Assembly (NCBI GenBank): GCA_036399015.1
Contig: DASWNW010000038.1
Coordinates: forward strand, 122,934 to 186,933
From: Thermoanaerobaculia bacterium
GTDB taxonomy: Bacteria > Acidobacteriota > Thermoanaerobaculia > Gp7-AA8
Direction: 5' to 3'
Length of the DNA stretch: 64,000 nucleotides
Both the position numbers and the translations under genes were made by a program. The notes beneath the pieces are model-generated. The model made no database searches and was not told the DNA's origin. It saw only the letters and a program-made list of their open reading frames with translations. Positions 14,737 to 63,677 of the stretch are shown here, one piece after another (within the stretch, counting starts at the first letter, position 1; the number at the start of each line of letters is the position of its first letter).

Positions 14737-16146
14737 CAGCTTCACCTTCGTGCGGTCGCCGATGTCCAGACCCTCCGAGCCGCGCACCACCTTCCCCTCG
14801 ATCGGCGGGTTGAAGATGCGCACCCACGTACCCTTCGCCGACGCGCCGGTGACGACGCCGTCGAACGACTCGCCGACGCGGTTCGCGAGCATGTAAGCCG
14901 CCGCGGTCTTGCGCACCTGGCGCTCGACCTTGTTCGCGGCGTCCTCCTGGTTCGTGCAGTGCTCCGCGAGCTCCGCCAGCTCCTCGACCGTGTACGGCGG
15001 CTCCTCCCCTGCCAGCGCCGCCTTCACCAGCCTGTGCGTGATCAGGTCGGGATAGCGGCGGTTCGGCGCGGTGGAGTGCGTGTAGTCCTTCACCGCCAGC
15101 CCGAAGTGGCCGGCCGGCTTGTCGCCCGCCTCCTCCACGACGTACTCCCCCGCTCCCATCGCCTTCACGATCGACAGCGACAGATCGGGGAAGCGCATCG
15201 GGTCGGCCTTCTTCATCCGCTTGAGGAACTCCTCGAGCGCCTTCGCATCCGGCTCCGGCGGCAGCCGCTCCCCCAGCTCCTCGGCGATGCGCTCGATGCG
15301 GTCCCAACGCTCCGGCGAGCGCACGACGCGGCGGATGCTCGGCAGTTTCTGCCGCGCCAGGTAGCGGGCCGTGACGCCGTTCGCGGCAATCATGAAGTCC
15401 TCGATGAGGAGGCGCGCGTTGTTCCGCCGCGACTGCCGCAGCTCGACCACCTGCCCGTCGCGGATCACCGGACGCGCCTCGATCGTCTCGAGGTCGAGCG
15501 CGCCGTTCTCGTGGCGGAGATCGCGCATCCGGTCGGCGGCGCGGTCCTGCAGCCGCAGCGACTCGGCCAGACCTTCGACGCGGCGCAGCTTCGCCGGCTC
15601 GTCGTCCTCGCCGTCGAGCCAGGCGGCGACGCGGTCGTACGCCAGTTTGGCGTGGTTGTGCACGAGCCCCCGATACAGATCCTCGGCGACGATGTGGCCG
15701 TCGTCGCGCACCGTCAGCTCGATCACCAGGGCGACGCGGTCGTGCCCCTCGTTGAGCGAGGTGAGATCGGTGGAGAGCTTCTCGGGCAGCATCGGAAAGA
15801 TCGTCGCGGCCGTGTACACCGAGGTGGTGTTGTGGCGCGCGTGGCGATCGATGGGGGTGTCCTTCTTCACCAGCGCGTCCACGTCGGCGACGGCGATGAG
15901 GATGCGCACGTTCCCGTCGCCGGCGTCCTCTCCCCATGTGAGCTGGTCGAGATCGCGCGAGTCGTCGTTGTCGATCGAGCACCAGCCCCAGTGCCGGAGG
16001 TCGCGCACCGAGTCGTCGGGAAGCGCGGGACCGCGGATGCCTTCGAGCTGCTTACGAACGTCCTTGTTGAAGTCGGGATCGAGGCCCTTGTCGATCATCG
16101 CCTGACGCGCCAACTCGTCGAGGAGCTCTTCATGCTTGCGATTCAT
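14689..16146 (-). CDS. RNB-domain exoribonuclease (RNase II/R family) with a C-terminal S1 domain.
   Basis: The RNB catalytic region and a C-terminal S1-like region (GKVVRGSEGLDIGDRTKVKL) are present. The start could instead be 16169. Confidence 0.7.
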   Translation of the reverse strand: MNRKHEELLDELARQAMIDKGLDPDFNKDVRKQLEGIRGPALPDDSVRDLRHWGWCSIDNDDSRDLDQLTWGEDAGDGNVRILIAVADVDALVKKDTPIDRHARHNTTSVYTAATIFPMLPEKLSTDLTSLNEGHDRVALVIELTVRDDGHIVAEDLYRGLVHNHAKLAYDRVAAWLDGEDDEPAKLRRVEGLAESLRLQDRAADRMRDLRHENGALDLETIEARPVIRDGQVVELRQSRRNNARLLIEDFMIAANGVTARYLARQKLPSIRRVVRSPERWDRIERIAEELGERLPPEPDAKALEEFLKRMKKADPMRFPDLSLSIVKAMGAGEYVVEEAGDKPAGHFGLAVKDYTHSTAPNRRYPDLITHRLVKAALAGEEPPYTVEELAELAEHCTNQEDAANKVERQVRKTAAAYMLANRVGESFDGVVTGASAKGTWVRIFNPPIEGKVVRGSEGLDIGDRTKVKLLGVDVERGFIDFGRR

Positions 16147-16200
16147 GGCCGCGGACGTTATCACCATGGCGTGAACGGGGTGCCGGCGGGCGACAACGCG

Positions 16201-17385
16201 ATGCTCGTGGAGCTCGGCGACGTGACGGCCGAGGAGCTGCACGCCGCGGCGAGGGAAATGCGGGGGAGGCCGGGTGTGCGGAAGGTCATCCCGGGGCATT
16301 CATCGCTCTACGTGATCTACGGCTCCGGCCCCGACGCGGAGGAATCGCAGCGCGAGCCGCGCGAGCATCGGATCCGTGTGGTGTTCGACGGGCCCGACCT
16401 GCGCATCCCGATCGACGACCTCCTGGCGCGTCTGCCGCTCCGGCTCACGGTGCGCTATCTCGGCTTTCGCGGCGGCTTCGCGTATCTCGACGGCTGGCCG
16501 GAGGAGTGGGCGATGCCGCGACGTCCGACGTCGCGCCCGGTGAAGGCCGGCTCGTTCGCGGTGGCGGGGACGGTGGCGGGGTTCTACCCGATCGACACGC
16601 CCGGCGGATGGAACATCCTCGGCCATACCGATGCGGAGGTGGAGAACGCATTCGTCCCCGGCGACACGATCGTCGTCGTCCCCTGGAGCGGCGGGCTCTC
16701 AGCCCGCCCGGGACGGCCTGAGAGGCCGTCCCTCCAGAGAGCGACGCTCGTCAATTCACCGCTGACCACCATCCTCGGCGTCCCCTTCGACGACGTCGCC
16801 GCGGAGCTGGCACGCAACGCCGTGCGCGGCAACGTCGAGCTCCTCGAATGCGCGATGACCGGCCCGCGGCTCCGCTTCGAGCAGGACGCCGTCATCGCCT
16901 GGTGCCCGCCCGATCTCCGGATCGAGACCCGCCGCGTGCGAGCGGGCGAAGAGGTGTCGTTCGGAAGGATCTCCGGCGGCCTGCGCGCCTACCTCGCCAT
17001 CGGCGACGAAGAAGGGATCGTCGGGAGCATCGAGCGCGGCGACCGCCACGTCATCCGCGCGCTGAAAGGGCCGCACGACACTCCGATCGCAGAAGAGGTC
17101 GAGTGCGAGGTCACGCCGCAGCTCGATCGGGTCGGCATCCGACTGCGTCCACTGCAGGCGCTGCACGTTGCCATCCCCGCAGACCTGAAGTCGATCGGCA
17201 TGCAGCGGGGGACGGTGCAGCTTCATCCCGACGGCTCGCTGGTGGCCATGGGGCCGGATCATCCGGTCACCGGCGGCTATCTGCAGCCGATGACCGTGAT
17301 CGTGTCGGAGAGGTGGAAGCTCGCCCAGCTCGTGCCGGGCGAGCGGGTGGTGCTCAAGACCCGAACTGATAGCCGGAGCGGCTGA
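16201..17385 (+). CDS. Fused carboxyltransferase-domain protein. It resembles 5-oxoprolinase subunits PxpB (AHS1/KipI) and PxpC (AHS2/KipA) fused together.
   Basis: The N-terminal half matches the KipI pattern (LVELGD...VIPGHSSLYVIY). The C-terminal half matches the KipA pattern (RLRFEQDAVIAW...GLRAYLAIG). No pxpA is adjacent. Confidence 0.6.
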   Translation: MLVELGDVTAEELHAAAREMRGRPGVRKVIPGHSSLYVIYGSGPDAEESQREPREHRIRVVFDGPDLRIPIDDLLARLPLRLTVRYLGFRGGFAYLDGWPEEWAMPRRPTSRPVKAGSFAVAGTVAGFYPIDTPGGWNILGHTDAEVENAFVPGDTIVVVPWSGGLSARPGRPERPSLQRATLVNSPLTTILGVPFDDVAAELARNAVRGNVELLECAMTGPRLRFEQDAVIAWCPPDLRIETRRVRAGEEVSFGRISGGLRAYLAIGDEEGIVGSIERGDRHVIRALKGPHDTPIAEEVECEVTPQLDRVGIRLRPLQALHVAIPADLKSIGMQRGTVQLHPDGSLVAMGPDHPVTGGYLQPMTVIVSERWKLAQLVPGERVVLKTRTDSRSG

Positions 17386-18408
17386 CGACCTTGAACTCCG
17401 GGTTGCGCAGCGAGACTTCGACCTTCTGGAACCCACGCTCCCCCTTCGGCTTCTGGGTGCGGTAGGTGAGGAGGTAGTAGCCGGCGTTGGTGTCCTCGAT
17501 GCGGTCGACGGCCGACTTGAAGCTCGTGTTGAACTGGAAGTAGTTGCCGCCGGTCGACTCCGAGATCTCGGAGAGGCGCTGGTGCACGTAGGTGGTCAGG
17601 CGGGCGTCCTGCTGGAGCTGCACGCCGTACACGGAGACGTTCGCCGCGTTGAGCGACTCGAGCATCGGGTCGAGGTACTGGCTGCGGGTGGTGAGGATGT
17701 CGCCGACCAGGCTCGACTCCTCGCGGTCGGCGATGCCGGGCGAGAAGAGCACCAGGTTCTTGCGCGCGCGGATGGGGCGCGTGGCGTCGGCGAGGAGGTC
17801 GAGCGCCTGGTACACCGTGCCGGTCTTGTTGACCATCTTCTTCGTGTCGATGTTGCGGAGGATCGAGGCGGTCTCGCCCGCCGGGGCCTTGGTGATGCCG
17901 CGCCCGAAGCGGGTGGCGTCGGCGAGGGCGCGCTCGAGCTGCCGCTTGTCGCTCGTGAAGTCGGTGTAGACCTTGAGGCGCACGTCGTGGCCGACGATGG
18001 CGACCAGGTCGTTCTCCTTCATGTCGTTGCGGACGAAGTCTTTCACCGCCTCGCGGGCGAGGGTGAGCTGGCTCTGGAACTGCGACGGCTCCATCGGCTT
18101 GTCGAAGAAGAAGATGAAGTAGCGGTCTTCGCGCACCCGCTCCACCTTGAACGGCGCGTTGGCCTCGGTGGCGTCGAGCAGGCGGCGGTTGGTGAAGTAG
18201 TCGACCGAGTCGATCTTCTGCACGGTCCCGTTTTCCTTGACCACGAAGTCGTCCGGGCCGAGGCCGAGGATCTGGTTGCCGCGGGAATCGGTGACGATGA
18301 CGTCGAGGAGGACCGCGTTGACGTCGATCTCCTGCTGGAACGTGCCGGTCTGGGCGAAGGTGGGAAGTGCGAGCGCGAGAAGCGCGATGAGGACTGCGAA
18401 ACGCTTCA
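17354..18408 (-). CDS. Secreted VWA-domain protein (acidobacterial-type VWFA-related domain).
   Basis: A signal peptide (MKRFAVLIALLALALPTFAQ) is followed by the pattern typical of TIGR03436-like proteins. Confidence 0.7.
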
Positions 18409-18567
18409 TAAATGGATCTCCTGTCGTATTTCGCAACGGGGCCCTGCAGGGGGCGATTCCGTGTTCACAGGAATGAACGGAAGGGGTATCCAGTTAGTTT
18501 GACCGCTTGGCGCGAAATCACTAGAATCCGCGCCTCCTGCGGCGAACCCTTCGCGGCAGAAGCAAAT

Positions 18568-18644
18568 CGGGGCATAGCTCAGCCTGGTAGAGCGCACGGT
18601 TCGGGACCGTGAGGTCGGAGGTTCAAGTCCTCTTGCCCCGACCA
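18568..18644 (+). tRNA. tRNA-Pro (anticodon CGG).
   Basis: A cloverleaf can be folded by eye. The acceptor stem is CGGGGCA/TGCCCCG. The anticodon loop is TTCGGGA, the T-loop is GGTTCAAGTCC and the 3' end is CCA. Confidence 0.9.
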
Positions 18645-18761
18645 TCTTTCTTCGAGATGGTCAGTTGCTGGTAGTACGCGTCGAGCCCGCCGGTTCCGCG
18701 TACCTATCTCGTTAAAGACGCATCAGCCAGAACGTCGCTCCCGCAGGGCTATCATCGGTGA

Positions 18762-19199
18762 ATGACTGACCCGGTGCTCACGAGCATCATCTCGGTAGCA
18801 GGCGCGCTTGTCGCCGCGGTCGCAGGATACGTGTTCACGAAGCGCGCGGAGCGAGAGTCGAGATGGCGTGATGAGAAGCTCGCTCACTACAAGGAGTTCA
18901 TGAAGAGCATGAGCGGAATCATCCACGATGAGTCCACTCGCGAGGGACAAATTCGCTTCGCAAAAGCCTGCAACGACATCCTGCTCTTCGCTCCTCAGAA
19001 CGTTCTCGAGCGGCTCCGCGATCTCCAAGACGAGATTTCGGCTTCGAACACGAATAAGAGCAAGGCGCGACATGACGAACTGCTATCGAAACTGCTCCTC
19101 GCCATGCGAAGGGACATCGGAGTACGTCCGGCGGACGATGAGAGGTCGTTTCGCGCAGAGCTGCGCGCGTCAGGAGCACCACCGGAGCGCAAGCTCTAA
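18762..19199 (+). CDS. Hypothetical protein with an N-terminal TM helix, encoded in a lower-GC (~56%) segment right after the tRNA.
   Basis: 145-aa ORF with a clear compositional shift. No family was recognised. Confidence 0.45.
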   Translation: MTDPVLTSIISVAGALVAAVAGYVFTKRAERESRWRDEKLAHYKEFMKSMSGIIHDESTREGQIRFAKACNDILLFAPQNVLERLRDLQDEISASNTNKSKARHDELLSKLLLAMRRDIGVRPADDERSFRAELRASGAPPERKL

Positions 19200-19738
19200 C
19201 GCCGTGTACCTGTCCAGGGCACGTCTTCGACGCCCGCCTCCCGGTTCGCGAACCTCGCCGCCACGAAGAGGTAATCCGACAACCGGTTGAGGTACGCGAT
19301 CGTCGATCGCGTGGCCTCCGACTCGTCCTGCAGCGCCACCACGAGCCGCTCCGCGCGGCGGCAGACCGTCCGCGCCACGTGCAGTTGCGCCGCGGCGAGC
19401 GACCCGGCGGGAAGGATGAAGCTCTTCAGCGGCTCGAGCTCCCGCTCCATGGCGTCGATGGCGAGCTCCAGCTCCTCGATCCGCCGCGCCTCGACGCCGG
19501 CAAAACGGCTGGTGCCGGGCGAGGCGAGATGGGCGCCGACCTCGAAGAGGTCTGACTGCACCTGCCGCAGGATCGCGTCTACGTCTTGCGGGACCGGTGA
19601 CGCGCGGGCGACGCCGACGTGGGAGCTCAGCTCGTCGACCGTGCCGTAGGCCTCGATGCGCGCGTCGTTTTTCGCGACGCGCGCACCACCGAAAAGCGAG
19701 GTCTGGCCGAGGTCGCCGGTGCGGGTGTAGATCTTCAA
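19196..19738 (-). CDS. ATP:cob(I)alamin adenosyltransferase, PduO type.
   Basis: The N-terminus MKIYTRTGDLGQTSLFGG and the rest of the 180-aa protein fit the PduO/MMAB family. Confidence 0.8.
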   Translation of the reverse strand: MKIYTRTGDLGQTSLFGGARVAKNDARIEAYGTVDELSSHVGVARASPVPQDVDAILRQVQSDLFEVGAHLASPGTSRFAGVEARRIEELELAIDAMERELEPLKSFILPAGSLAAAQLHVARTVCRRAERLVVALQDESEATRSTIAYLNRLSDYLFVAARFANREAGVEDVPWTGTRR

Positions 19739-19742
19739 CGCA

Positions 19743-21475
19743 CTAGGCTTCGGACTCGAGCTGGCGGATGCGCTCCTTGACGACCATCTCCGCGAGATCG
19801 GGGATCACTTCCCAGGCGATGTTGCGCACCACCTGGTCCGACATGAGCTCGACGACGCGGCGGGCGATGCGGTCCACCTGATCGTCCGACAGCTCGCCGT
19901 TCCGGGCCGCGATCGCCATCGGCGGCGCGTCGGGCGCAAGGGCAGGCGGCGGCACGACCGGCTCGTCCGGCTCGGCGGCCGCTTCGGCGGCGGCGAGCGG
20001 CGCCCACGACTGCTCCGGCGCCGGGTCGGGCTCCGGCGCGGGCGTGGTGTCGGCCGCGAACGGGAGGTCCTCCGGCATCGGCTCGGCGAACGGCGAGGCA
20101 GCAACCGGCGGCTCATCCTCGGCCGGCTCCGCGGTCGGCGCCCACAGCGACTCGACCGGATCCACTTCACGCGGCGCGAACGGCGAGTCGTCCTCGGCGG
20201 CCGGCTCGCTCCAGGGAGCGGGCTCCGGCGCGGAGAAGTCGGGCACCGGCTCGGGCGACGCCGCCACTTCCGGCTCCGCGGCGGGCGCGGGAGCGGGGGC
20301 GAAGTCGTCGAAACTCAGTTTCGGGAAGGCGCGCGTCTCGCCGCCGAAGGCAGGCGTGTCGTCCGCAACCGGGTCGCCCCAGGGGGCCGGCTCCTGCTCC
20401 GCGGCGGGCGGCGGCGTGGAGGCGGCCATCTGCTGGAGGTCGTCGAAGCTCATCTTCGGGAAGGCGCGCGTCTCGCCGCCGAAGGCAGGCGCGTCCGGCT
20501 CCTCGTCGAAGGGAGAGGGAGCGTCGAAGGGCGACGCGGCAGCTGGCGGCGGCTCGGGCGCCGGCTCCGCGGCAGGAGCGGCGTTCGCCATCTGCTGGAG
20601 GTCGTCGAACGTCATGCGGGGGAAGGCGCGCGTCTCGCCGCTGAACTCCTCGGCGGGCGGCGGCGCGCCGAACGGCGACTCCGCCTCGGGCTCCGGCGCG
20701 GGCGACGCGAAGTCGAACCCGCCGCCTGCCGGCTCGTCCCACGGCGACGCCGCGGGCGCCGGCTCCGGCGCGGGAGGAGGCGGCGGTGCGGCGGCCTCGG
20801 GAATCGAGGCGGGCGACTGCACCGACATCTGCTGCATCTCGTCGAATGTCATGCGCGGGAAGGCGCGCGTCTCACCGCTGAACTCCTCCGCCGGCGGCAG
20901 CTCGAACGGCATCTCCGTCGTCGGTGCGGGAGAGGGGGCGGCGCCGAAGATGTCGGCGTCGTGCGTAAAGGCGTCGGCAGCGGGCGGAGGGGTGTAGGCG
21001 GTGCTGAAGGAGCTCGCCGGCTCGGCGGGCGCGTCATCCATCCACGGCGACACCGCCGGTTCGGCCTCGGGGGCTGCCGCGGCGGGTGCGGCGGAGGCGC
21101 TCTGCGCCTGCGCGATCAGCTCCTCCACCTTGTGGATCAGGCTCTGCGACTCGAACGGCTTGGTGACGACGGCATCGCAGCCGGCCTTCTCGGCGCGATC
21201 CGGATCGAACGGCTCGAACGTGCCGGTCAGCAGCACCACCGGGATGTTGCGAAAGTCGGGATGCGACTTCACGTACTCGCAGACCTCGTAGCCGTTCTTC
21301 TCCGGCATGATGATGTCCGAGAGGATGATGTCGGGCCGCAGGTCGGCGAGTTTCTGCACCGCCTTCGCGCCGTTGTTGACGGCGGTGACCTCGTAATCGC
21401 CGTCGGAAAACGTCAGCTCGACGACCTTCTGGATGGTGATACTGTCGTCCGCGAGAAGGATCTTTTTCGGCATTG
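19743..21475 (-). CDS. Response regulator. It has an N-terminal receiver domain, a long Pro/Ala/Glu-rich linker with four copies of a 17-aa motif, and a short conserved C-terminal helix. It is RomR-like in architecture.
   Basis: The REC motifs are MPKKILLADD and the phospho-acceptor region DIIMPEKNGYEV. Four copies of GETRAFP(R/K)M(T/S)FD(D/E)(L/M)QQM are encoded by DNA repeats at about 20304, 20441, 20601 and 20839. Confidence 0.75.
20300..20900. repeat. Four dispersed direct repeats of about 60 bp (GTCGTCGAA..TCAT..GGGAAGGCGCGCGTCTCGCCGC..GAA) inside the response-regulator CDS.
   Basis: The near-identical segments are visible in the sequence. They encode the repeated peptide motif. Confidence 0.7.
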
Positions 21476-21537
21476 ATCTGGCTCCGTGAATGAGCAGCAA
21501 GCTACCACGGTAGTTTCGAGGGGACAAGAGATTACGG

Positions 21538-22203
21538 ATGGCGGAGCAGTTCCTGATTCTAGGGCATCGCGGCAGTCCGAAACGCTTCCCCGAGAACACG
21601 CTGGCGTCGTTCGAAGAGACGCTGCGCGCGGGCGCCGACGGCTTCGAGACCGACCTCCGCCTGCTCTTCGACCGCACCGCCGTGCTGTACCACGACGACG
21701 AGCTGAATGAAGAGCAGATCGAGTCGCTCAGCTTCACCCAGCTCGCCGAGCGCGGAGCGATGGCGGAGCGGCTCACGAACCTCTCGCGGTTCGCCGGCCG
21801 CGGCATGATGGTGCTCGAGGTGAAGCGTGCGAAGTGGGAGGAGACGCTCATCGAGCACGTGCGCGAATGGCCGGATGCGGTCATCGCGTCCTTCGATCAT
21901 TCGATCCTGGTCGAGCTCCGCCGCCGCGACTTCGCCCTCCCCCTCGGCATCACCTTCCACGGCTACATCGTCGACGTCGCCGCGTACGCCGCGCGCCTCG
22001 GTGCCGCCTGGGCGTTCCCGAACTATCACTTCGTCGACGAGGAGATGGTGCGGTCACTCCACGGCGAGGGAATCCGCGTGATGCCCTGGACGGCGAACCG
22101 GAAGCAGGAGTGGGAGCGGCTGCGGGAGCTCGGCTGCGACGGGGTGATCACCGACTACCCCGCCGAGGCGGTGGAATGGCGCGGCGCGGAGCTTCGTCGC
22201 TGA
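21538..22203 (+). CDS. Glycerophosphodiester phosphodiesterase family protein.
   Basis: The motif LGHRGSPKRFPENTLASFE is HR(G)xxxxxPENT. 221 aa. Confidence 0.8.
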   Translation: MAEQFLILGHRGSPKRFPENTLASFEETLRAGADGFETDLRLLFDRTAVLYHDDELNEEQIESLSFTQLAERGAMAERLTNLSRFAGRGMMVLEVKRAKWEETLIEHVREWPDAVIASFDHSILVELRRRDFALPLGITFHGYIVDVAAYAARLGAAWAFPNYHFVDEEMVRSLHGEGIRVMPWTANRKQEWERLRELGCDGVITDYPAEAVEWRGAELRR

Positions 22204-22269
22204 ATGGCATCCACACTTTGTTACACTTGCCGCGCTCGAGCGTAGCTACGGGAGGGGGAGCCCACGGAC

Positions 22270-22467
22270 ATGAGACTCTGGGAATACAAGATCATCAACG
22301 TCCGGTCGGAGAATTACTCGATGGATCCGCGGCGCGCGGAAGAGCTGAACCGCCTCGGCGACGAGGGATGGGAGCTGGTCAGCATCACCTCGATCAACTT
22401 CAAGACCGGCGCGACCGATCACATCGGGATGGTGTTCAAGAGAGAGAAGCAGGCCGCAACCGCCTAG
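22270..22467 (+). CDS. DUF4177-like small protein.
   Basis: 65 aa starting MRLWEYKII...GWELVSI. The size and motif are typical of DUF4177. Confidence 0.5.
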   Translation: MRLWEYKIINVRSENYSMDPRRAEELNRLGDEGWELVSITSINFKTGATDHIGMVFKREKQAATA

Positions 22468-22564
22468 CCGGCACGGCCGGCGGCGCTGGTTGCTCCGCCG
22501 GTGCACGTACGGCCACTCCGTCGGTGCGTTCTGCCGCGCAGGCTCCTAGCCCTCCGCTCGCGAG

Positions 22565-23010
22565 GTCACCCGACGATCCATTGATCGTCACCCACGTTCA
22601 CCCCATCGCAGGTGATGATCCGCGCATCGCCGCGCGACGATCCGCGCGCGCGTTCCCGACGATCCGGTGGACATCTGCTGATGTCCATCGCCAGGAACCC
22701 GGCGATCGCGTCATCGCGCCGGACGATCCTCCGGTCGTCACGGACGTCGAGCGGATCGTCGCCGGTCGATCCACCCCATCGCCGCCCCTCGATCCACTCA
22801 TCGTCGACCATGTGCTCCCACATCGCCGCCGGCCCCGGTTCGACGACACTCACGATCCGCCGATCGTCGGTTCGCCGCGCCTCGATCGTCGCCTCTCGAT
22901 GCGATGGAGGTGAGGTGATGTCCGCAGGATCGCCGGGCGACCTCGACTTGGGGCGAGGTGGCGATGTGCGGATCGTCGACCGGCGCGACACCGTCGGCAC
23001 GCGACCATCA
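22565..23010. promoter_or_regulatory. Non-coding array of ACGATC-N3-5-GATCGT inverted-repeat motifs. It holds about 17 GATC sites in about 450 bp.
   Basis: Counted by eye: GATC is roughly 10-fold over-represented for this base composition. About 6 imperfect palindromic copies are present, such as CGACGATCCATTGATCGTCA. Confidence 0.5.
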
Positions 23011-23025
23011 CGATAAGATCGCGGA

Positions 23026-23586
23026 GTGATCGAAGCCCTACGGATCGTGGCGCTCCTCGGGTTAGCGCTCACCGCGTGCAGCTCGCTGCCGCCGAATGCG
23101 CTTCGTCCATCAACCCCAGGCGCTCTCCAGCGCGAGTTTCAACGCTCCCACGGACCGGCAACAGAAGCCGAGTACGCGCAGTGTGAGACACCATACGAGA
23201 ACACGACTGGCGTAACCGAAATCGCCATCGAGAGAACGTCCTGCTACGGCTACTGCCCGACCTACACCCTCCAGCTGTTCAGCGATGGCCGCGTTGCGTA
23301 CGTCGGTCAGGCTTCCGTCAGATTCATCGAGCCGCGAAGCGGGAAGCTGGATGAGTACTTGTTCACGAAGCTCGCACGGACGGCGGTTGGAATCGGATTC
23401 TTCGAGTTGCAGGACCGATATACGTGTGCGGTGACCGACAACCCGACTGTCTACGTCGCCGTAGTCCGGAACGGAACGCGAAAGGTCATCGAACACTACG
23501 CGCCCGAATGGACCGGCCCGGCCGCTCTCCGTCTGTTTGAAGAGGCCATCGACAACGTAGAGCCGTACATCGAGTGGGTGAGGTGA
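23026..23586 (+). CDS. Lipoprotein (DUF6438-like), lower GC.
   Basis: A signal peptide with a lipobox (LALTAC) is present. Conserved cysteines occur at ...SCYGYCPTY. Confidence 0.6.
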   Translation: MIEALRIVALLGLALTACSSLPPNALRPSTPGALQREFQRSHGPATEAEYAQCETPYENTTGVTEIAIERTSCYGYCPTYTLQLFSDGRVAYVGQASVRFIEPRSGKLDEYLFTKLARTAVGIGFFELQDRYTCAVTDNPTVYVAVVRNGTRKVIEHYAPEWTGPAALRLFEEAIDNVEPYIEWVR

Positions 23587-23759
23587 CTCCTCGCCGCGCC
23601 GTCATGAAGCGGTGGCCGTTCAACCTCGCCGCCGCGTTCTCGCTGCTGCTGTCGCTCACCATCGCCGCGGCATGGGCGACGAGTTACGCGCAGCCGCGCG
23701 ACTGGCATCTACTCGGACTCGCGCACTCAGCGGGTTTGACGCGGGTTGATCTCGACCGC

Positions 23760-24022
23760 CGCGGGGTCGTCGTGATTCGAGTCGAAGCCGACGTGCGCGA
23801 CCTCCTCGACTACCTCTGCGGCGTATCCGTTCATCAGGAAGTGTTCTTTCTCTGGCGTCCCTTTCTGCGTGACGCCGCGGACGACATGATCGTGGAGTTG
23901 GCGGTTGCCGCGGGTGTGAAGTCATCGTGACGCACAATGTCAGAGACTTCCGCGGTGCCGAACGTTTCGGCCTGCGGATCGTGACGCCAGCCGTTATTTT
24001 CAGGTCAACTTTGAGGTGAACA
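23760..24022 (+). pseudogene. Remnant of a PIN-domain toxin (TIGR00305-like). Only the C-terminal half is present, and it is frameshifted.
   Basis: ...FLWRPFLRDAADDMIVELAVAAGV continues in the -1 frame as VIVTHNVRDFRGAERFGLRIVTPAVIF. No PIN N-terminal aspartates lie upstream. The upstream part of ORF 23574-23930 is unrelated. Confidence 0.5.
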
Positions 24023-24023
24023 G

Positions 24024-24299
24024 ATGGGTGCCTTGAACCTTCGTCTTCCAGAATCTCTTCACCGCAAGCTCAGCGAAGTGGCGGAACGTGAAGGGATTTC
24101 CATCAATCAGCTCATCAATTCCGCAGTCGCTGAAAAGATGTCCGCCTTGATGACAGAGGAGTATCTCGCGGCACGTGCCAAGCGGGGGAGCCGCCGGAAG
24201 TTTGATGCCGTTCTCGCTAAAGTACCGGATGTCGAGCCACATGCAACAGATCGACTTCCCGCGCCCAGTCGGAAGCGGGCTGATAAAAAGGCTGGCTAG
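24024..24299 (+). CDS. HicB-family-like ribbon-helix-helix antitoxin.
   Basis: MGALNLRLPESLHRKLSEVAEREGISINQLINSAVAEKMSALMTEEYL matches the short RHH HicB-like antitoxins. Confidence 0.6.
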   Translation: MGALNLRLPESLHRKLSEVAEREGISINQLINSAVAEKMSALMTEEYLAARAKRGSRRKFDAVLAKVPDVEPHATDRLPAPSRKRADKKAG

Positions 24300-24512
24300 C
24301 GCGGAACCGGCCGCACAGCTGGCGTGAGATCCGTCAGGCGCATAGACCATCGCCCCCCTACACCGGGTCCGGGGGCCGGTCAGTGTGCAGGCGCGGATGA
24401 TCATGTCACCCCACTGGGCGATCGTCCTCCTCGGCCTGCCACTGCCGCTGCTGTGGCTGCGCGTCAGGCGCCGTTCGCGATCGCGACCCGTCAGCCCCCG
24501 TTGAGGGCGCCG

Positions 24513-24722
24513 CTACCGACGTCGTGCCGGCTCGACGCTGTCGGGAACACGCTCCGCGGCTTCTTTCGCGCGCGCGATCCACGCCGGCCGCTTCGACTTG
24601 GACGGCGGCACGGTGACCGGCTCGCCCCACGCGGACGGATCCTGCGCGTCCGCGATCACGAGCTCGTCGAGCTCCGTCTCCGTCAGTTCCGGCTTCTTCG
24701 GGCGTCGTTTCACAGCTGCCAT
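24513..24722 (-). CDS. Putative BrnA-like antitoxin, apparently lacking the C-terminal RHH.
   Basis: It lies immediately downstream of the BrnT-like gene. The ELTETELDELV...RPAWIARAKEAAERV pattern is loosely BrnA-like. Confidence 0.3.
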   Translation of the reverse strand: MAAVKRRPKKPELTETELDELVIADAQDPSAWGEPVTVPPSKSKRPAWIARAKEAAERVPDSVEPARRR

Positions 24723-24729
24723 CCAGTAA

Positions 24730-24993
24730 TTACGCGCATCGTCTGATGCCAGAGACGTGCACGATCAACATGAGAGGACGACCAGCGTCGGTCCGGCCGA
24801 GGAGCTGGTACCGGCTCGCTCCGTGCCGCCTGTGGTTCGGGCGGACAACGAAGCCGTTCCAGATCAACTCTGCCGCCTCCCACGCCTCCACACGATGCGC
24901 CGCGAGCTTGTCAGCATCGTAGTCGATCTCCCATTCGGCGGGGTCGAAGCGATGCCAGTCGACCACGGCCTTAATTAGAGGCGCCAGTTGCAC
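24730..24993 (-). CDS. BrnT-like (DUF497) ribonuclease toxin, possibly C-terminally truncated.
   Basis: The pattern YDADKLAAHRVEAWEAAELIW...LLGRTDAGRPLMLIVHV resembles the DUF497 core. This is a weak by-eye call. Confidence 0.4.
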   Translation of the reverse strand: MQLAPLIKAVVDWHRFDPAEWEIDYDADKLAAHRVEAWEAAELIWNGFVVRPNHRRHGASRYQLLGRTDAGRPLMLIVHVSGIRRCA

Positions 24994-25314
24994 CGGTGGT
25001 ATTCCTCGTGCGTCTCGATCCAGAACCAGAGGATGCCGTCGGGTGCAGTGACGGGTGCTGCGAATTCGCTTTCAACAGCTCGAAGTTCGCACGAGCGAGT
25101 CAGAACTTGAGGGACGCGTGATGACTCAAATCTCGCGCGTCTCACCGCGGCGGTGTTCGGCGACCTGGGTGAATCTTAGAAGAGCGCCGATCGCGCCGGC
25201 TCGGGGGCGGTCGTTGCTGGCGCGACCATCGTCTCGCGCGGCTGCGGCCTCTCCACGTGATTACGTGAGGTGCGGAGGTCCGGCATCGTTCCTTCGGCGG
25301 GTGGGATCGCCCCC

Positions 25315-40241: not shown

Positions 40242-43200
40242 TCAGCTCAACCGCATCCGGGTGACCGCGGCCGCCGCGAGCAGGCCCGCCAGGATCATCA
40301 GGCCCCACTCCGACGCCGTCGGGACCGCCGCGACGTGCGCCGAGGCGACGACCACCGACGCGCTGGAGGAGTTGTTGGACGTCACCGCCTCCGACTCGTC
40401 GCTGTCGACGGTGGCGACGTTCATCATCGTGCCCACGCCCATGGCGCGGCCGGTCATCGTGATCGTGATCGAAGCGCCGTTCAGCATCGTGCCGAGCGCG
40501 CACGTCACCGTCGTGGTTCCGCTGCACGTGCCCAGCGTCGACGTGACGCCGGTCAACTGGAAGTTCGCCGGCAGCGGGTCGTTGAGCACCACGTTCGTCG
40601 CGGTGTCGGGGCCGTTGTTGGTGACGACCAGCGTGAAGTTGAACGTGTCGCCGACCAGCATGCTGGTGAGGGAGGCCGACTTCACGATGCCCAGGTCGAC
40701 CACCGGTCCGCCGGCGTCGCCGCCGTTGCCGTCGTCGTCGGTGTTGTCGTCGACGTCGGGGTCGGGCTCGGTCGCAGTGACCGTGGCCACGTTGTCGAAC
40801 GCGCCGGCGGCGTCGATCGTCGCCGTGACCGTTATGGTGGTGCTCGCACCGACGGCAAGGCTGGCGATGGTGCACGGCAGCGCGGCGCAGCCGCTGCCGC
40901 TCACGCCGGTGATGGTGAGGTTCGTCGGCGTGTCGGTCACCTGGATGTTCGTCGCCGGGGACGGTCCGGCGTTCGCGACCACGAGCGTGTAAGTGAGCTC
41001 CTGGCCGAGGCCGAACGGTCCGGGGGTGACGAGGGTCTTGACCACCGAGACGTCGGCCGAGGGGCCGGTGAAGCCGCCGTTGTCGTCCTCGTCGTCGTTG
41101 TCCTCGCCGTCGGGGTCGGGCTCGGTGGCGGTGGCCGCGGCCACGTTGTCGAACGCGCCGGCGGCGTCGATGGTCGCCGTCACGGTGATGGTGGTGCTCG
41201 CTCCCATGGCGAGGCTGGCGATGGTGCACGGCAGCGCGGCGCAGCCGCTGCCGCTCACGCCGGTGATGGTGAGGTTCGTCGGCGTGTCGGTCACCTGGAT
41301 GTTCGTCGCCGCCGACGGTCCGGCGTTCGCGACCACGAGCGTGTACTGGATCGATTGACCGATGCTGAAGGGGCCGACGGTGATCAGCGTCTTCACCAGC
41401 GAAACGTCCGCCGAGGGGCCGGCGATGTCGCCGTCGTCATCGGTGTTGTCGTCCACGTCGGGGTCAGGCTCGGTCGCCGTCGCGGTCGCGGTGTTGCTGA
41501 ACGCGCCGGCGGCGTTGACTGTCGCCGTCACGTTGATGGTGGCGTTCGCGCCCATGGCGATGCTGGGGATGGTGCACGGCAGCGCCGCACAGCCGCTGCC
41601 GCTCACGCCGGTGATGGTCATGTTCGCCGGCGTGTCTGTCACGGTGACGCTCGTGGCGGTTGAGGGGCCGGCGTTCGCCACGATGAGGGTGTACTGGATC
41701 GCCTGACCGATGCTGAACGGGCCGGCGGTGATCAGTGTCTTCACCAGTGAGACATCCGCCGAGGGGCCGGCGATGTCGCCGTCGTCATCGGTGTTGTCGT
41801 CCACGTCGGGGTCAGGCTCGTTCGCCGTCGCGGTCGCGGTGTTGCTGAACGCGCCGGCGGCGTTGACGGTCGCCGTCACGTTGACGGTGGCGCTCGCGCC
41901 CATGGCGATGCTGGGGATGGTGCACGGCAGCGCGGCGCAGCCGCTGCCGCTGACGGCGGTGACGGTCATGTTCGACGGCGTGTCCGTCACCTCGACCGAC
42001 GTGGCCGTGGAGGGGCCGGCGTTCGCCACGACGAGCGTGTACTGGATCGACTGACCGACGCTGAAGGGGCCGGCGGTGATCAGCGTCTTCACCAGCGAAA
42101 CGTCCGCGGACGGACCAGCGATGTCGCCGTCGTCATCGGTGTTGTCGTCCACGTCGGGGTCAGGCTCGGTCGCCGTCGCGGTCGCGGTGTTGCTGAACGC
42201 GCCGGCGGCGTTGAGCGTCGCCGTGACGTTGATGGTCGCGTTCGCGCCCATGGCGATGCTGGGGATGGTGCACGGCAGCGCGGCACAGCCGCTGCCGCTG
42301 ACGCTGGTGATGGTCATGTTCGACGGCGTGTCCGTCACCTCGACCTTGGTGGCGACGGAGGGGCCGGCGTTGGCCACTACGAGCGTGTACTGGATCGACT
42401 GGCCGGGGATGAAGGGGCCGGCAGTGATCAGCGTCTTCACCAGCGAGACGTCGGCCGAGGGGCCGGCGATGTCGCCGTCGTCATCGGTGTTGTCGTCCAC
42501 GTCGGGGTCAGGCTCGTCCGCGGTCGCGGTGGCGGTGTTGCTGAACGCGCCAGCGGCGTTGACCGTCGCCGTGACGTTGATGGTGGCGCTCGCGCCCATG
42601 GCGATGCTGGGGATGGTGCACGGCAGCGCGGCGCAGCCGCTGCCGCTGACGGCGGTGATGGTCATGTTCGCCGGCACGTCGGTCACGGCGACGCTCGTGG
42701 CCGTGGAGGGGCCGGCGTTCGCCATGACGAGGGTGTACTGGATCGCCTGACCGATGCTGAACGGGCCGGCGGTGATCAGTGTCTTCACCAGTGAGACATC
42801 CGCCGAGGGGCCGGCGATGTCGCCGTCATCATCGGTGTTGTCGTCCACGTCAGGGTCAGGCTCGTCGGCTGTCGCGGTGGCGGTGTTGCTGAACGCGCCG
42901 GCGGCGTTGACGGTCGCCGTCACGTTGATGGTGGCGCTCGCTCCCATGGCGATGCTGGGGATGGTGCAGGGCAGCGCGGCGCAGCCGCTGCCGCTCACGC
43001 TGGTGATGGTCATGTTCGCCGGCACGTCCGTCACCTCGACCGACGTGGCCGTGGAGGGGCCGGCGTTCGACACGACGAGCGTGTACTGAATCGACTGACC
43101 GACGGTGAAGGGGGCGGCGGTGATGAGCGTCTTCACCAGCGAGACGTCGGCCGAGGGGCCGGCGATGCCGCCGTCGTCATCGGTGTTGTCGTCCACGTCG

Positions 43201-62554: not shown

Positions 62555-62654
62555 CGGCATAGCGACAACAAACGTCACGAGACCTCGGGCAGAAGCGCGA
62601 GTCCAGCGATAGCTCTGCCTCGAATCGAACGCAACCAACGACAGGAGAACCGAA

Positions 62655-63677
62655 ATGCGTGGAGTGATGATGTACACCGCAGGCGACGTACGCGTGGTGG
62701 AGCGTGAGGATCCGAGGATCGTCGCGCCGACGGACGCGATCGTTCGCCTCGCTGCAACTTGTATCTGCGGATCGGATCTGTGGCCGTACCGCGGGATCGA
62801 GCCGGTCGACCATCAGGTCATGGGTCACGAATACGCCGGCATCGTCGAGGAGATCGGCAGCGCCGTGAAGACGATCAAGCCCGGCGACTTCGTCGTCGGC
62901 TCGTTCGTCATCTCCGACAACACGTGCGAGATCTGCCGGTCCGGGTATCCGTCGAAGTGCGTGCACGCGGAGTTCGTTTCCCAGACGATCGGCACGCAGG
63001 CCGAGAAGGCGCGCATCCCGTACGCGGACGGCACGCTCGTGGCGACACCGGGCCCGCCCGATCCGGAGTTGATCCCGTCGCTGCTCGCGGCTTCCGACGT
63101 GCTGGGGACCGGCTGGTTCGCCGCCGTTGCCGCCGAGGCGGGACCGGGGAAGACGGTCGCCGTCGTGGGTGACGGCGCGGTCGGCTTGATGGCGGTGCTC
63201 GCCGCGAAGCAACTCGGCGCGGAACGGATCATCGCCATGTCGCGCCACCCGGAACGGCAGAAGCTCGCCCGTTTCTACGGCGCAACCGACATCGTCGAGG
63301 AACGGGGCGACGAGGGTGTCGCGCGGGTCAAGGAGCTGACGAACGGGCTCGGCGCGCACTCCGTCGTGGAGGCGGTCGGGACGCAGGAGGCGATGATGCA
63401 GGCGATCAACGCCACTCGCGGCGGCGGGCACATGGGGTACGTCGGTGTGCCGTACGAGGCGTCCATCCCCGCACTCCCACTGTTCTTCAGCGGGATTCAC
63501 CTGCACGGCGGCCCCGCGCCTGTGCGCCGTTTCCTGCCGGAACTGATTCAGCTCATCTGGGATCGCAGGATCGACCCCGGCAAAGTCTTCGACCAGACGC
63601 TTCCCCTCGACCGCGCCGCGGAAGGCTACAAGGCGATGGATGAGCGTCGTGCGATCAAAACACTGCTGACGCTGTAA
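62655..63677 (+). CDS. Zinc-dependent alcohol dehydrogenase family (MDR) oxidoreductase.
   Basis: The zinc motifs GHEYAG and C-x2-C-x2-C-x7-C and the Rossmann motif VAVVGDGAVG are present. Confidence 0.85.
   Translation: MRGVMMYTAGDVRVVEREDPRIVAPTDAIVRLAATCICGSDLWPYRGIEPVDHQVMGHEYAGIVEEIGSAVKTIKPGDFVVGSFVISDNTCEICRSGYPSKCVHAEFVSQTIGTQAEKARIPYADGTLVATPGPPDPELIPSLLAASDVLGTGWFAAVAAEAGPGKTVAVVGDGAVGLMAVLAAKQLGAERIIAMSRHPERQKLARFYGATDIVEERGDEGVARVKELTNGLGAHSVVEAVGTQEAMMQAINATRGGGHMGYVGVPYEASIPALPLFFSGIHLHGGPAPVRRFLPELIQLIWDRRIDPGKVFDQTLPLDRAAEGYKAMDERRAIKTLLTL

Follow-up and report, generated by a model that had tools for sequence, protein, structure and literature searches.

A helically phased array of GATC-bearing dyads at a synteny break upstream of a DUF6438 lipoprotein gene in a Thermoanaerobaculia bacterium

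Described repeat arrays and the locus

The centromere of plasmid F, sopC, consists of 12 units of 43 bp, each holding a 16-bp inverted repeat, and the parC sites of R1 and pSK41 are comparable centromeres. These arrays are scaffolds for cooperative protein binding. Transposon ends also carry repeated sites, such as the 22-bp TnsB sites of Tn7 and the MuA sites of Mu, with 3-4 sites per end, while REPs are palindromes dispersed in many intergenic regions. In E. coli, GATC tetramers cluster at oriC and the dnaA promoter, and Dam-dependent switches operate at pap, agn43 and opvAB; P1 pac belongs to the same group. GATC clusters are also found within E. coli genes (PMC493266). The second origin of Vibrio cholerae, ori2, contains six regularly spaced 12-mers, each with a GATC that has to be methylated for RctB binding (PMC6212839).

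The locus described here lies in a 64-kb stretch of DNA (the window) from a Thermoanaerobaculia bacterium, on a contig of at least 200 kb with housekeeping genes aboard. Its features are:

22270-22467, plus strand: DUF4177 gene (Pfam E=5e-12), last gene of the block syntenic with relatives
22476-22502, plus strand: GC-rich hairpin with no T-run, just after the DUF4177 stop codon (minimum-free-energy structure and sequence)
22569-22980 (~410 bp), no strand: phased array of ~19 slots with a 21.5-bp period (GATCC and ATCGYC phasing, matrix scan)
22566-23000, minus strand: 144-aa ORF, VGF28_07490 at NCBI and also called by JGI; 168 aa from the GTG at 23072
23026-23586, plus strand: DUF6438 lipoprotein gene (Pfam E=3e-25; lipobox LTAC), first gene downstream of the array

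Like the sopC and parC centromeres, this is a non-coding array of several hundred bp in which a short repeat is spaced by whole helical turns, and the 43-bp sopC unit is exactly twice the 21.5-bp period found here. Unlike them it is chromosomal, with no parA/sopA- or parB/sopB-type genes among those checked, and its units are far more degenerate than those of sopC and have no sequence similarity to any plasmid record. With the V. cholerae ori2 iterons it shares regular spacing, a GATC inside each unit and one polarity for most units, but no initiator gene was found among those checked, and there is no AT-rich element (minimum GC 60%) and no DnaA box within 2 mismatches; moreover, the repeats are ~19 dyads rather than 6+5 head-to-tail 12-mers, and the host belongs to Acidobacteriota. 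The local GATC excess, the helical phasing and the position upstream of a surface-lipoprotein gene recall the E. coli GATC clusters and Dam switches. Here, however, the conserved element is a 9-mer arm and not the bare tetramer, 15 sites are present as against 2-11, and the array is not at an origin. Ends of Tn7 and Mu likewise have a unit of ~22 bp, contiguous sites and two opposed site groups, whereas this array has far more sites, no transposase was found among the genes checked and there is no cargo. The grouping of palindromes in an intergenic gap resembles REP/BIME elements, but neither a RAYT-type gene (REP-associated tyrosine transposase) nor other copies were found in the 64 kb.

Setting and architecture of the array

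The DUF4177-DUF6438 gap measures 558 bp and both flanks are supported by Pfam, as the earlier note had it when it placed the array between DUF4177 and a lower-GC lipoprotein gene (GC is 62% at 23-24 kb and 68% for the whole window). The hairpin at 22476-22502 probably forms at the 3' end of the DUF4177 transcript. From this hairpin it is ~65 bp downstream to the array, which ends ~45 bp before the lipoprotein gene, a possible target of regulation by the array. A promoter scan and a sigma-54 consensus search found no sigma-70-like or sigma-54-like promoter in the 558-bp gap, and a terminator scan of the gap gave no prediction. The downstream neighbourhood is a low-GC islet with toxin-antitoxin debris, and the 41 kb downstream of the array are ordinary chromosome. 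Genes for replication or partition, and for an integrase, a transposase or a methyltransferase, are lacking among the window genes scanned against Pfam or with precomputed Pfam annotation. A break in the Logan unitigs falls at 22512/22520.

The unit consensus is cCCGACGATCC-N3-GATCGTCG (GATCGtCG on the right), an imperfect 20-bp palindrome; each 20-bp dyad has 8-bp arms, CGACGATC and GATCGTCG, with a 4-nt spacer between them. Individual units are:

22571-22590, no strand: best-preserved dyad, CGACGATCC ATT GATCGTCA (= CGACGATCCATTGATCGTCA) (sequence; 20.5 bits)
22669-22686: variant dyad or hairpin GGACATC TGCT GATGTCC, in slots 4-5 of the array (sequence)
22721-22740, no strand: dyad GGACGATCC TCC GGTCGTCA (sequence; 16.4 bits)
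22742-22761, no strand: dyad GGACGTCG AGC GGATCGTCG, with a strong right arm (15.1 bits)
22788-22806, no strand: dyad CTCGATCC ACT CATCGTCG (sequence; 20.9 bits)
22850-22869, no strand: dyad TCACGATCC GCC GATCGTCG, with ACGATCCGCCGATCGT at 22852-22867 (21.8 bits)
22960-22979: reversed unit GGCGATGTGC GGATCGTCGA, rightmost in the array (18.1 bits on the minus strand vs 15.5 on the plus strand)

These include the two inverted repeats that the earlier note quoted as examples (CGACGATCCATTGATCGTCA at 22571-22590 and ACGATCCGCCGATCGT at 22852-22867) and the GGACATC-TGCT-GATGTCC hairpin that it described, at 22669-22686. That the repeat exists was right; the count of about six imperfect copies was not, as the unit matrix gives ~11 of the ~19 slots a score of 12 bits or more. 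At a threshold of 11 bits, 19 matches fall inside the array and 80 in the other 63.5 kb. Some 15 units, C-rich on the plus strand, come first, and about three reversed units follow from ~22900; the GC skew changes sign near 22880.

The phasing is a stronger signal than GATC density and went unnoticed in the earlier note. The eight GATCC sites have a period of 21.5 bp (Rayleigh R=0.99, p<5e-5, with 0/20,000 random placements as good) and the 11 ATCG[TC]C sites one of 21.6 bp (R=0.91, p~5e-5). A period of 21.5 bp corresponds to two turns of DNA at ~10.75 bp per turn, and the jitter of the slots is at most 1.5 bp over ~19 slots. Successive GATCC sites are 42, 22, 22, 64, 43, 23 and 63 bp apart, with all deviations from 21n positive, and at exactly 21.0 bp R falls to 0.78 (GATCC) and 0.50 (ATCG[TC]C). 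A heptad repeat, that is, a 21-bp coding repeat, is ruled out by this loss of R together with the positive deviations. Because spacings of 22, 22, 43, 23 and 64 bp are not multiples of 3, the repeat is one of DNA and not of peptide. Autocorrelation at lag 22 reaches only z=2.4-2.5 and overall unit similarity is low; a higher-order echo is seen at 129 bp, or six units (z=3.7).

The density of GATC is itself raised, though less than had been claimed. Counting gives 15 sites in the 446 bp of 22565-23010 (18 if the region is extended to 23046) instead of about 17 in about 450 bp, and the expectation of 1 per 350 bp is a mononucleotide value only: the window holds 512 GATC, or 1 per 125 bp, where a maximal-order Markov model expects 549. 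At the window rate 3.6 sites are expected in 446 bp, so that the enrichment is ~4.2-fold and not ~13-fold. A GATC "enrichment" measured against mononucleotide expectation is misleading in high-GC genomes. The caution that GATC might be equally frequent elsewhere is borne out in part, in that the tetramer is common across the whole window, but a local excess of ~4-fold remains. The Poisson probability of at least 15 GATC is 5e-6 (~8e-4 after correction for the number of windows), and the densest 446-bp stretch of the 64-kb window lies here, with a maximum of 16; the runner-up, in an ADH gene, holds 12. The 15 GATC all keep phase with the helix (R=0.75 for a period of 10.7 bp, 0.84 for the harmonic of 7.2 bp; p~2e-4). 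A HIP1-like over-representation of GCGATCGC or CGATCG was rejected, since window counts match the Markov expectation.

Similarity among the units, which are ~60-70% alike, is distributed unevenly. Averaged over pairs of units, identity reaches 0.46 in the arms but 0.31 in the spacer and flanks, against a random baseline of ~0.28; the contrast between arms and spacer has a permutation p<5e-5, for columns that were chosen after the data were seen. Taken over all columns, conservation varies no more than uniform neutral decay would predict (p=0.33). The window holds 15 copies of the 8-mer GACGATCC, its complement included; six of them fall within 460 bp in the array region, and these six exact copies carry unrelated spacers.

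Synteny with nine related genomes stops at the DUF4177 stop codon (22468), exactly where the array lies. In a GDPD-anchored comparison that covered GTDB genomes and metagenomes from JGI, the gene after DUF4177 is gpmI in 9/9 relatives that extend far enough, and gpmI was not found in the 64-kb window. The junction after DUF4177 spans 20-130 bp in relatives vs 558 bp here, and the array is absent from 13 relatives in the same comparison. The idea that the array marks the edge of an insertion agrees with this break in synteny, but the mobile element that would go with it is unsupported. Homologues of the DUF6438 protein, up to 76% identical, stand in other gene contexts and have no array upstream. 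The window contains no second array or motif cluster, the best match to its remainder being a 15-nt chance match; the other nine copies of GACGATCC and the best matrix matches are isolated, and the two best matrix matches outside the array were assessed as intragenic or at a gene start. Across 236 other loci (2.1 Mb) there are at most 4 matrix matches per 450 bp, vs 11 here, and BLASTN searches of plasmids and phages for distant similarity gave no match. An IMG/VR scan for CGACGATCC-N12-15-CGACGATCC returned 92 loci; those with several matches are perfect 21-bp coding heptad repeats that lack the dyad and were set aside as unrelated. Scanning IMG/VR with the dyad pattern gave more than 120 loci with single chance matches. 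Kinship of the array with a nearby PIN remnant, which has an IVTH peptide in common with it, was rejected as there is no DNA similarity. With a single known instance, evolutionary conservation lends the array no support for a function.

Reading frames across the array

The earlier note called the gap non-coding. In public annotation it is not, as both JGI and NCBI call the 144-aa minus-strand ORF, but this ORF (VGF28_07490) is most likely a spurious gene call. The plus-strand frame encoding the repeated DDPLIVTHV peptide had been described correctly as having no start codon and overlapping the upstream genes, and it has no protein homologue and no Pfam match.

That the minus-strand ORF (144-168 aa) is instead a real orphan gene, with the GATC density a by-product of an Asp-Asp-x-x-Ile-Val repeat, is distinctly improbable. 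In its favour stand the calls of two annotation pipelines and the top coding score in a six-frame codon model, together with codon-like GC1/GC2/GC3 values (0.72-0.77 / 0.52 / 0.75-0.82) and a lag-3 autocorrelation of z=3.0. Its codon log-likelihood ratio of -0.07 per codon compares with 0.24-0.54 for core genes and -1.05 to 0.13 for spurious ORFs; it also resembles that of the genuine genes of the neighbouring islet (-0.5 to 0.0 per codon). However, the palindrome consists of the common codons GAC, GAT, ATC and GTC on both strands and so mimics a coding signal, and 4/6 frames are open in the array region. In this ORF one and the same DNA motif comes out as DD..IV, GSS or PDRR from unit to unit: the codon phases of the motif (5/2/1 and 6/4/1) are not significantly non-uniform, all three frames are used, and the spacings are not multiples of 3. 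In contrast, the coding ADH gene at 62.6-63.1 kb has 8/12 of its GATC in one codon phase, with spacings of 21 and 57 bp. Among 5.8e9 proteins the ORF matches only itself, and among 1.84e9 cluster representatives only itself and junk tandem-repeat ORFs; it has no Pfam match. Its product is rich in Arg, Asp, Pro and Ser and of low complexity, and its longest version overlaps the start of the lipoprotein gene. Even if the array is no more than a decaying repeat, it would serve as a caution that gene callers annotate spurious ORFs across palindromic arrays that are built of common codons.

Possible readings: binding platform, decaying repeat or methylation switch

The reading that we prefer, and hold tentatively, is that of an array of cooperatively bound sites along a single face of the helix, lying upstream of the DUF6438 lipoprotein gene. 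A dimeric DNA-binding protein of the helix-turn-helix or ribbon-helix-helix type would recognise each dyad. With dyads every 21.5 bp, or two helical turns, the bound dimers would all lie on one face of the DNA, and neighbouring dimers could contact each other to give a cooperative nucleoprotein filament ~400 bp long. The most likely output would be silencing or switch-like control of the DUF6438 promoter region, and since each arm includes a GATC, adenine methylation could affect occupancy, provided that the organism encodes a GATC methyltransferase. The data show the motif with its dyad symmetry and phasing, its nature as a repeat of DNA, its uniqueness and its place at a synteny break; binding by a protein, cooperativity, the regulated target and a part for methylation are inferred. 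The phasing, the local concentration of GACGATCC, the concentration of conservation in the dyad arms, a gap longer than the same junction in relatives and the lack of any coding or RNA family match argue for such a platform. Of what the earlier note proposed, an array for a dimeric regulator is best supported by the anatomy (8-bp arms, 4-nt spacer, two-turn slots, arm conservation), although no cognate protein was found: the only nearby DNA-binding-type genes are those of HicB-family and BrnA-like antitoxins, 1-1.7 kb away, whose upstream regions do not contain the array motif; the HicB-family protein is encoded at 24024-24299. A working platform would provide a compact, sequence-defined handle on a DNA-binding system of the Thermoanaerobaculia, a class that is uncultured and has hardly been studied. 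The consensus CGACGATCC-N3-GATCGTCG would be directly usable for DNA-affinity capture or DAP-seq, and with a GATC in every half-site, long-read methylation footprints would be a ready read-out of occupancy.

The main rival, which we consider somewhat less likely, is a functionless, decaying tandem repeat (minisatellite) that slippage or unequal exchange produced at the junction of a rearrangement or insertion, its phasing a memory of the original unit length. It would account for an array that is unique to the lineage and sits exactly at a synteny breakpoint, for the 129-bp echo of six units (z=3.7), which indicates growth by block duplication, and for units that are only ~60-70% alike; the overall column variance is compatible with uniform decay (p=0.33), and neither partner gene, promoter nor conservation was found. 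Uniform decay, however, would erode all columns equally, whereas spacer and flank stand at the random baseline (0.31 vs 0.28) and the arms at 0.46, and the exact 8-mer GACGATCC survives six times beside unrelated spacers. Nor does slippage need dyad symmetry, and the non-integer period equals two helical turns and is held over ~19 slots. Descent from a mobile or invertible element, as its remnant or as a miniature derivative, is improbable. It could take the form of transposon ends with multiple 22-bp transposase sites, as in Tn7 or Mu, or of an invertible promoter segment between inverted repeats, upstream of the surface lipoprotein gene. The three or so reversed units facing ~15 forward ones, the synteny break adjoining the low-GC toxin-antitoxin islet, the break of the Logan unitigs and the identity of the first downstream gene, lipoproteins being a typical phase-variable class, fit such an origin, as does a 19-bp inverted repeat:

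22561-22579: left arm CGAGGTCACCCGACGATCC (repeat search and sequence; 17/19 matches)
22927-22945: right arm GGATCGCCGGGCGACCTCG, partner of 22561-22579 (repeat search and sequence)

One array unit lies outside the right arm, so that this pair does not bound the array, and a palindromic unit trivially gives rise to many inverted-repeat pairs; the long pairs are 71-78% matched, compared with the near-perfect repeats of active invertons. The earlier note had suggested decayed terminal repeats of a mobile element, and this is unsupported on several counts: there are no terminal inverted repeats at the boundaries, no target-site duplication (the flanks are GCTCG vs ACTTG), no second motif cluster in the window and no further copies in the window and 2.1 Mb; none of the window genes checked encodes a transposase, integrase or invertase, and the downstream genes examined are those of ordinary chromosome. 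A structured RNA of many small hairpins, in the 5' leader of the lipoprotein mRNA or the 3' UTR of DUF4177, is extremely unlikely. Folding z-scores are -3.6 on the plus strand and -2.9 on the minus strand, and each dyad can form a 7-8-bp stem, yet the two strands fold about equally, as expected from DNA palindromes, and helical phasing of DNA has no rationale for RNA. Even at a permissive threshold Rfam 15 gave a single match, Scr3920, which reaches 24.4 bits where the gathering score is 88 (E=0.043), and no family was assigned.

In our judgement the probability is also low that the GATC sites themselves are functional in a Dam-type methylation-controlled region, by sequestration or as an epigenetic switch. 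The window maximum of GATC density (4.2x background), the presence of GATC in both arms of the dyad and the helical phasing of the 15 sites (p~2e-4) all speak for it, but the conserved unit, CGACGATCC, is wider than GATC, and known switches use 2-4 GATC sites, not 15. As far as we know, only Gammaproteobacteria have SeqA. The window genes checked include no methyltransferase, and GATC is neither avoided nor enriched (512 vs Markov 549), so that a GATC system is neither indicated nor contradicted by the window. The Dam/SeqA-type control that the earlier note suggested is neither borne out nor disproved. As regards a Dam-dependent switch of the pap, agn43 or opvAB type, GATC is present in each dyad arm and the array ends ~45 bp before the lipoprotein gene; no promoter or regulator was identified. 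A bolder version would be an orphan chromosomal platform of ~19 GATC-bearing dyads at which the occupancy of a cooperatively bound dimeric protein would compete with adenine methylation in an epigenetic switch of the lipoprotein operon. This is very improbable, and we know of no description of Dam-type phase variation in Acidobacteriota; if real, it would exceed every GATC switch described so far several-fold in size. A precedent for regularly spaced iterons, each with a GATC needed for initiator binding, exists (PMC6212839), but the features of an origin are absent here. There is no DnaA box within 2 mismatches in 22470-23025 and no AT-rich unwinding element (GC is at least 60% throughout the gap), the cumulative GC skew rises through the window without a minimum at the array, and a rep gene is likewise missing from the window genes checked; the two-turn spacing of an iteron origin is present (21.5 bp, R=0.99). 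As regards partition, no parA-type ATPase or centromere-binding-protein gene turned up in the genes checked, which reach 22 kb to the upstream side and 41 kb to the downstream side. The array itself has the form of a partition centromere, being a tandem array of inverted repeats with 11 units of at least 12 bits in ~19 slots.

Organization of the array

A DUF4177 gene and a DUF6438 lipoprotein gene flank the 558-bp gap that holds the array. The features needed here are as follows (window coordinates).

22270-22467: DUF4177 gene, left border of the array gap
23026-23586: DUF6438 lipoprotein gene, right border of the array gap
23000-25000: lower-GC islet (2 kb, 62-64% GC vs 68% for the window) with the DUF6438 lipoprotein gene, a PIN_3 remnant, a HicB-family gene and a BrnT-like gene
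23780-24010: frameshifted PIN_3 toxin-gene remnant (Pfam PF13470, E=1.2e-6, 29.8 bits, both frames joined near 23920)
24024-24299: solitary HicB-family ribbon-helix-helix gene in the islet
24513-24993, minus strand: weak BrnT-like gene (E=3.5e-4, under the Pfam curated cut-off) and a 69-aa partner ORF
62629-63075: runner-up in GATC density (12 in 446 bp), within a zinc-type alcohol dehydrogenase gene

The unit obtained with an iterative matrix, cCcGaCGATCC-N3-GATCGtCG, is an imperfect 20-bp palindrome with arms of 8 bp and a spacer of 4 nt. A 21.5-bp lattice accommodates the eight GATCC sites (22575, 22617, 22639, 22661, 22725, 22768, 22791, 22854) with a Rayleigh R of 0.99, equalled by 0 of 20,000 random placements (periods of 9-45 bp scanned); the 11 ATCG[TC]C sites follow a period of 21.6 bp (R=0.91, p ~5e-5). 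About 19 units are in register when the array is cut each 21.5 bp starting at 22569. Given the unit geometry and this period, half-sites alternate at ~12 and ~9.5 bp, with a mean of 10.75 bp, one helical turn. The matrix has 19 matches at ≥11 bits in the array and 80 in the remaining 63.5 kb; as the array was also its training set, the comparison is partly circular. The strongest autocorrelation peak, a 129-bp (6-unit) echo (z=3.7), points to array growth by block duplication. GC skew is negative at 22510-22900 and positive at 22870-22990, a sign change that corresponds to ~15 units in one direction and then ~3 reversed. The array is a real, statistically solid feature, with more order than the earlier note, which missed the phasing, had described; the sequences and hairpin quoted there were located at their positions.

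All 17 CGATC-anchored half-sites of the array were compared column-wise in the same orientation. Pairwise identity is 0.38-0.62 in arm and mirrored-arm positions and averages 0.31 in spacers and flanks (random baseline ~0.28). Mean identity is 0.46 in the arms vs 0.31 elsewhere (permutation p<5e-5), the core columns having been picked after the palindrome was seen, and overall column variance does not exceed that of a uniform-decay simulation (p=0.33). Selective maintenance of the arms is suggested, not proven.

GATC density itself is less telling. There are 15 tetramers in 22565-23010 (18 if the end is moved to 23046), not the ~17 first reported, and the assumed rate of one per ~350 bp matches only a mononucleotide expectation (one per 344 bp). 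The whole window holds 512, one per 125 bp, in agreement with the 549 expected from a maximal-order Markov model, so the claimed enrichment shrinks to ~4-fold; even so, no other stretch of the 64 kb is as dense (sliding maximum 16, runner-up 12, in 446-bp stretches; corrected Poisson p ~8e-4). The longer word GACGATCC says more, as 6 of 15 window copies of it or its complement lie in the array region. Elsewhere, a good dyad match, CGTGAGGATCCGAGGATCGTCG, occurs at 62703, close to the start of the alcohol dehydrogenase gene. A viral contig (IMG/VR 2974721162_000001) has 19 GATC per 450 bp at ~1526-2100; the dyad matrix has no match there, and the region is of a different kind. In a related MAG (L009, 8301-8700, downstream of gpmI), 7 GATCC/GGATC sites per 400 bp show an apparent 17-bp period.

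The junction and its surroundings

The source is an uncultured Thermoanaerobaculia bacterium (Acidobacteriota); among genomes, Thermoanaerobaculia MAGs come closest, with 70-80% protein identity. JGI metagenome 3300034145, an ENA assembly and Logan unitigs of SRR10954988 all carry identical sequence, and an NCBI MAG records the identical protein from the array locus. The Logan unitigs stop at 22512 and restart at 22520, a 7-bp gap located 3' of a GC-rich hairpin (22476-22502) and 5' of the array, possibly reflecting a coverage drop or strain variation.

Relatives share synteny, at nucleotide and protein level, over ~15100-22468; it breaks off at the DUF4177 stop codon. Nine relatives extend far enough downstream for comparison (L006, L008-L011, L111-L113, L116), and in each of them DUF4177 is followed by gpmI (phosphoglycerate mutase gene), which starts within ~130 bp of the stop in seven and after one intervening 437-aa gene in two. 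gpmI is absent from the window, including the 41 kb beyond 22468, and the junction is a lineage-specific rearrangement. DUF6438 homologues (≤76% identity) occur in unrelated contexts, without the array.

Directly downstream of the array comes the islet, which looks like toxin-antitoxin debris at a synteny junction; its PIN_3 remnant is the 3' half of an annotated 108-118-aa ORF (23574-23930), directly upstream of the HicB-family gene. Beyond it lie ordinary chromosomal genes (MFS transporter, PstS-like, porin, histidine kinase, MazG, endonuclease III, urocanase, LodA, a 3369-aa repeat protein, tricorn protease and others), and the genes upstream of the array are likewise housekeeping. The 3369-aa giant ORF (40242-50351, minus strand) contains a JGI assembly break, contig _000013 ending near 45.8 kb and _000081 beginning near 46.15 kb. 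On the syntenic side, a response-regulator gene (19743-21476, minus strand) has a long Pro/Ala-rich region with ~5 copies of a FGGETRAFPKMSFDDLQQM-like repeat, kept in L006 and L008. The segment matching a tRNA-Pro(CGG) gene (18568-18644) aligns reversed in L008, L009, L113 and L115, which indicates a small local inversion.

DNA repeat, peptide repeat or RNA

Successive GATCC spacings are 42, 22, 22, 64, 43, 23 and 63 bp; only two of the seven (42 and 63) are divisible by 3, and deviations from 21n are positive in every case. At exactly 21 bp, R drops to 0.78 and 0.50. Motif codon phases are 5/2/1 and 6/4/1, a non-significant non-uniformity, while in a coding control, the alcohol dehydrogenase gene (62.6-63.1 kb), 8 of 12 GATC share a single codon phase, with spacings of 21 and 57 bp. 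The annotated minus-strand ORF across the array (VGF28_07490) reads the same DNA motif variously as DD..IV, GSS and PDRR. The palindrome GAC GAT C.. ... ATC GTC is made of common codons on either strand, which explains the "DD..IV" peptides from both strands, the four of six frames open across the array and the acceptance of this ORF by gene callers.

That the ORF is a real orphan gene is improbable. A six-frame codon model ranks it best as coding by a small margin. With a composition null as reference, its score is -0.07 per codon, under all 23 core genes (0.24-0.54) and inside the spurious-ORF range, but also close to the genuine, compositionally atypical neighbours DUF6438, BrnT and HicB; codon usage thus points neither way. 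A search of 5.8 billion proteins with the ORF (144-168 aa) returned only itself, and exhaustive HMMER against 1.84 billion representatives added only four tandem-repeat junk ORFs, whose E-values are sums over repeats. Protein homology searches with the plus-strand reading found nothing, and neither frame has a Pfam match. A structured RNA is more doubtful still: both strands fold somewhat better than shuffles (z=-3.6 and -2.9), as expected of DNA palindromes, and Rfam gave only a sub-threshold match to the array region.

Candidate roles

Dyad symmetry, arm-focused conservation and a two-turn period over ~400 bp, with no coding or RNA explanation, are as expected of a protein scaffold. Dimers of a putative DNA-binding protein would line up on one helix face and interact, and the array would act as a cooperative operator-like scaffold on the adjacent lipoprotein promoter region, a reading we hold tentatively. 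The dimeric-regulator array proposed earlier is the reading that the anatomy (dyads, phasing, arm conservation) favours most, but no linked partner protein was found. Known systems that work as such scaffolds are partition centromeres (sopC, parC), iteron arrays and large operator arrays. The array departs from each of these families on a defining feature: no partner gene was found among the window genes checked, and origin elements are absent. The main rival, a functionless tandem repeat made at the junction and now decaying, is favoured by the uniqueness of the array and its lack of conservation, and is somewhat unlikely. No comparable motif cluster occurs in 2.1 Mb of fetched loci, and plasmid and phage records show no similarity.

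There is little likelihood of a remnant of a mobile or invertible element. Synteny does stop at DUF4177, as expected of the insertion edge suggested in the earlier note, but no integrase, transposase, rep, par or methyltransferase gene appears among the window genes covered by Pfam scan or precomputed Pfam annotation; with ordinary neighbours as well, the array marks a lineage-specific rearrangement or acquisition junction rather than a recognisable mobile-element end. A methylation-centred GATC cluster is equally improbable. At Vibrio ori2, GATC inside every unit gates protein binding by methylation (PMC6212839); the Dam/SeqA-type cluster once envisaged here has neither origin elements at the array nor a methyltransferase gene among the window genes checked. 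The array stands alone as an orphan in an uncultured genome, without a linked protein. It adds one case to a known feature type, the phased dyad array, and its interest is modest unless occupancy emerges from methylome or binding data.
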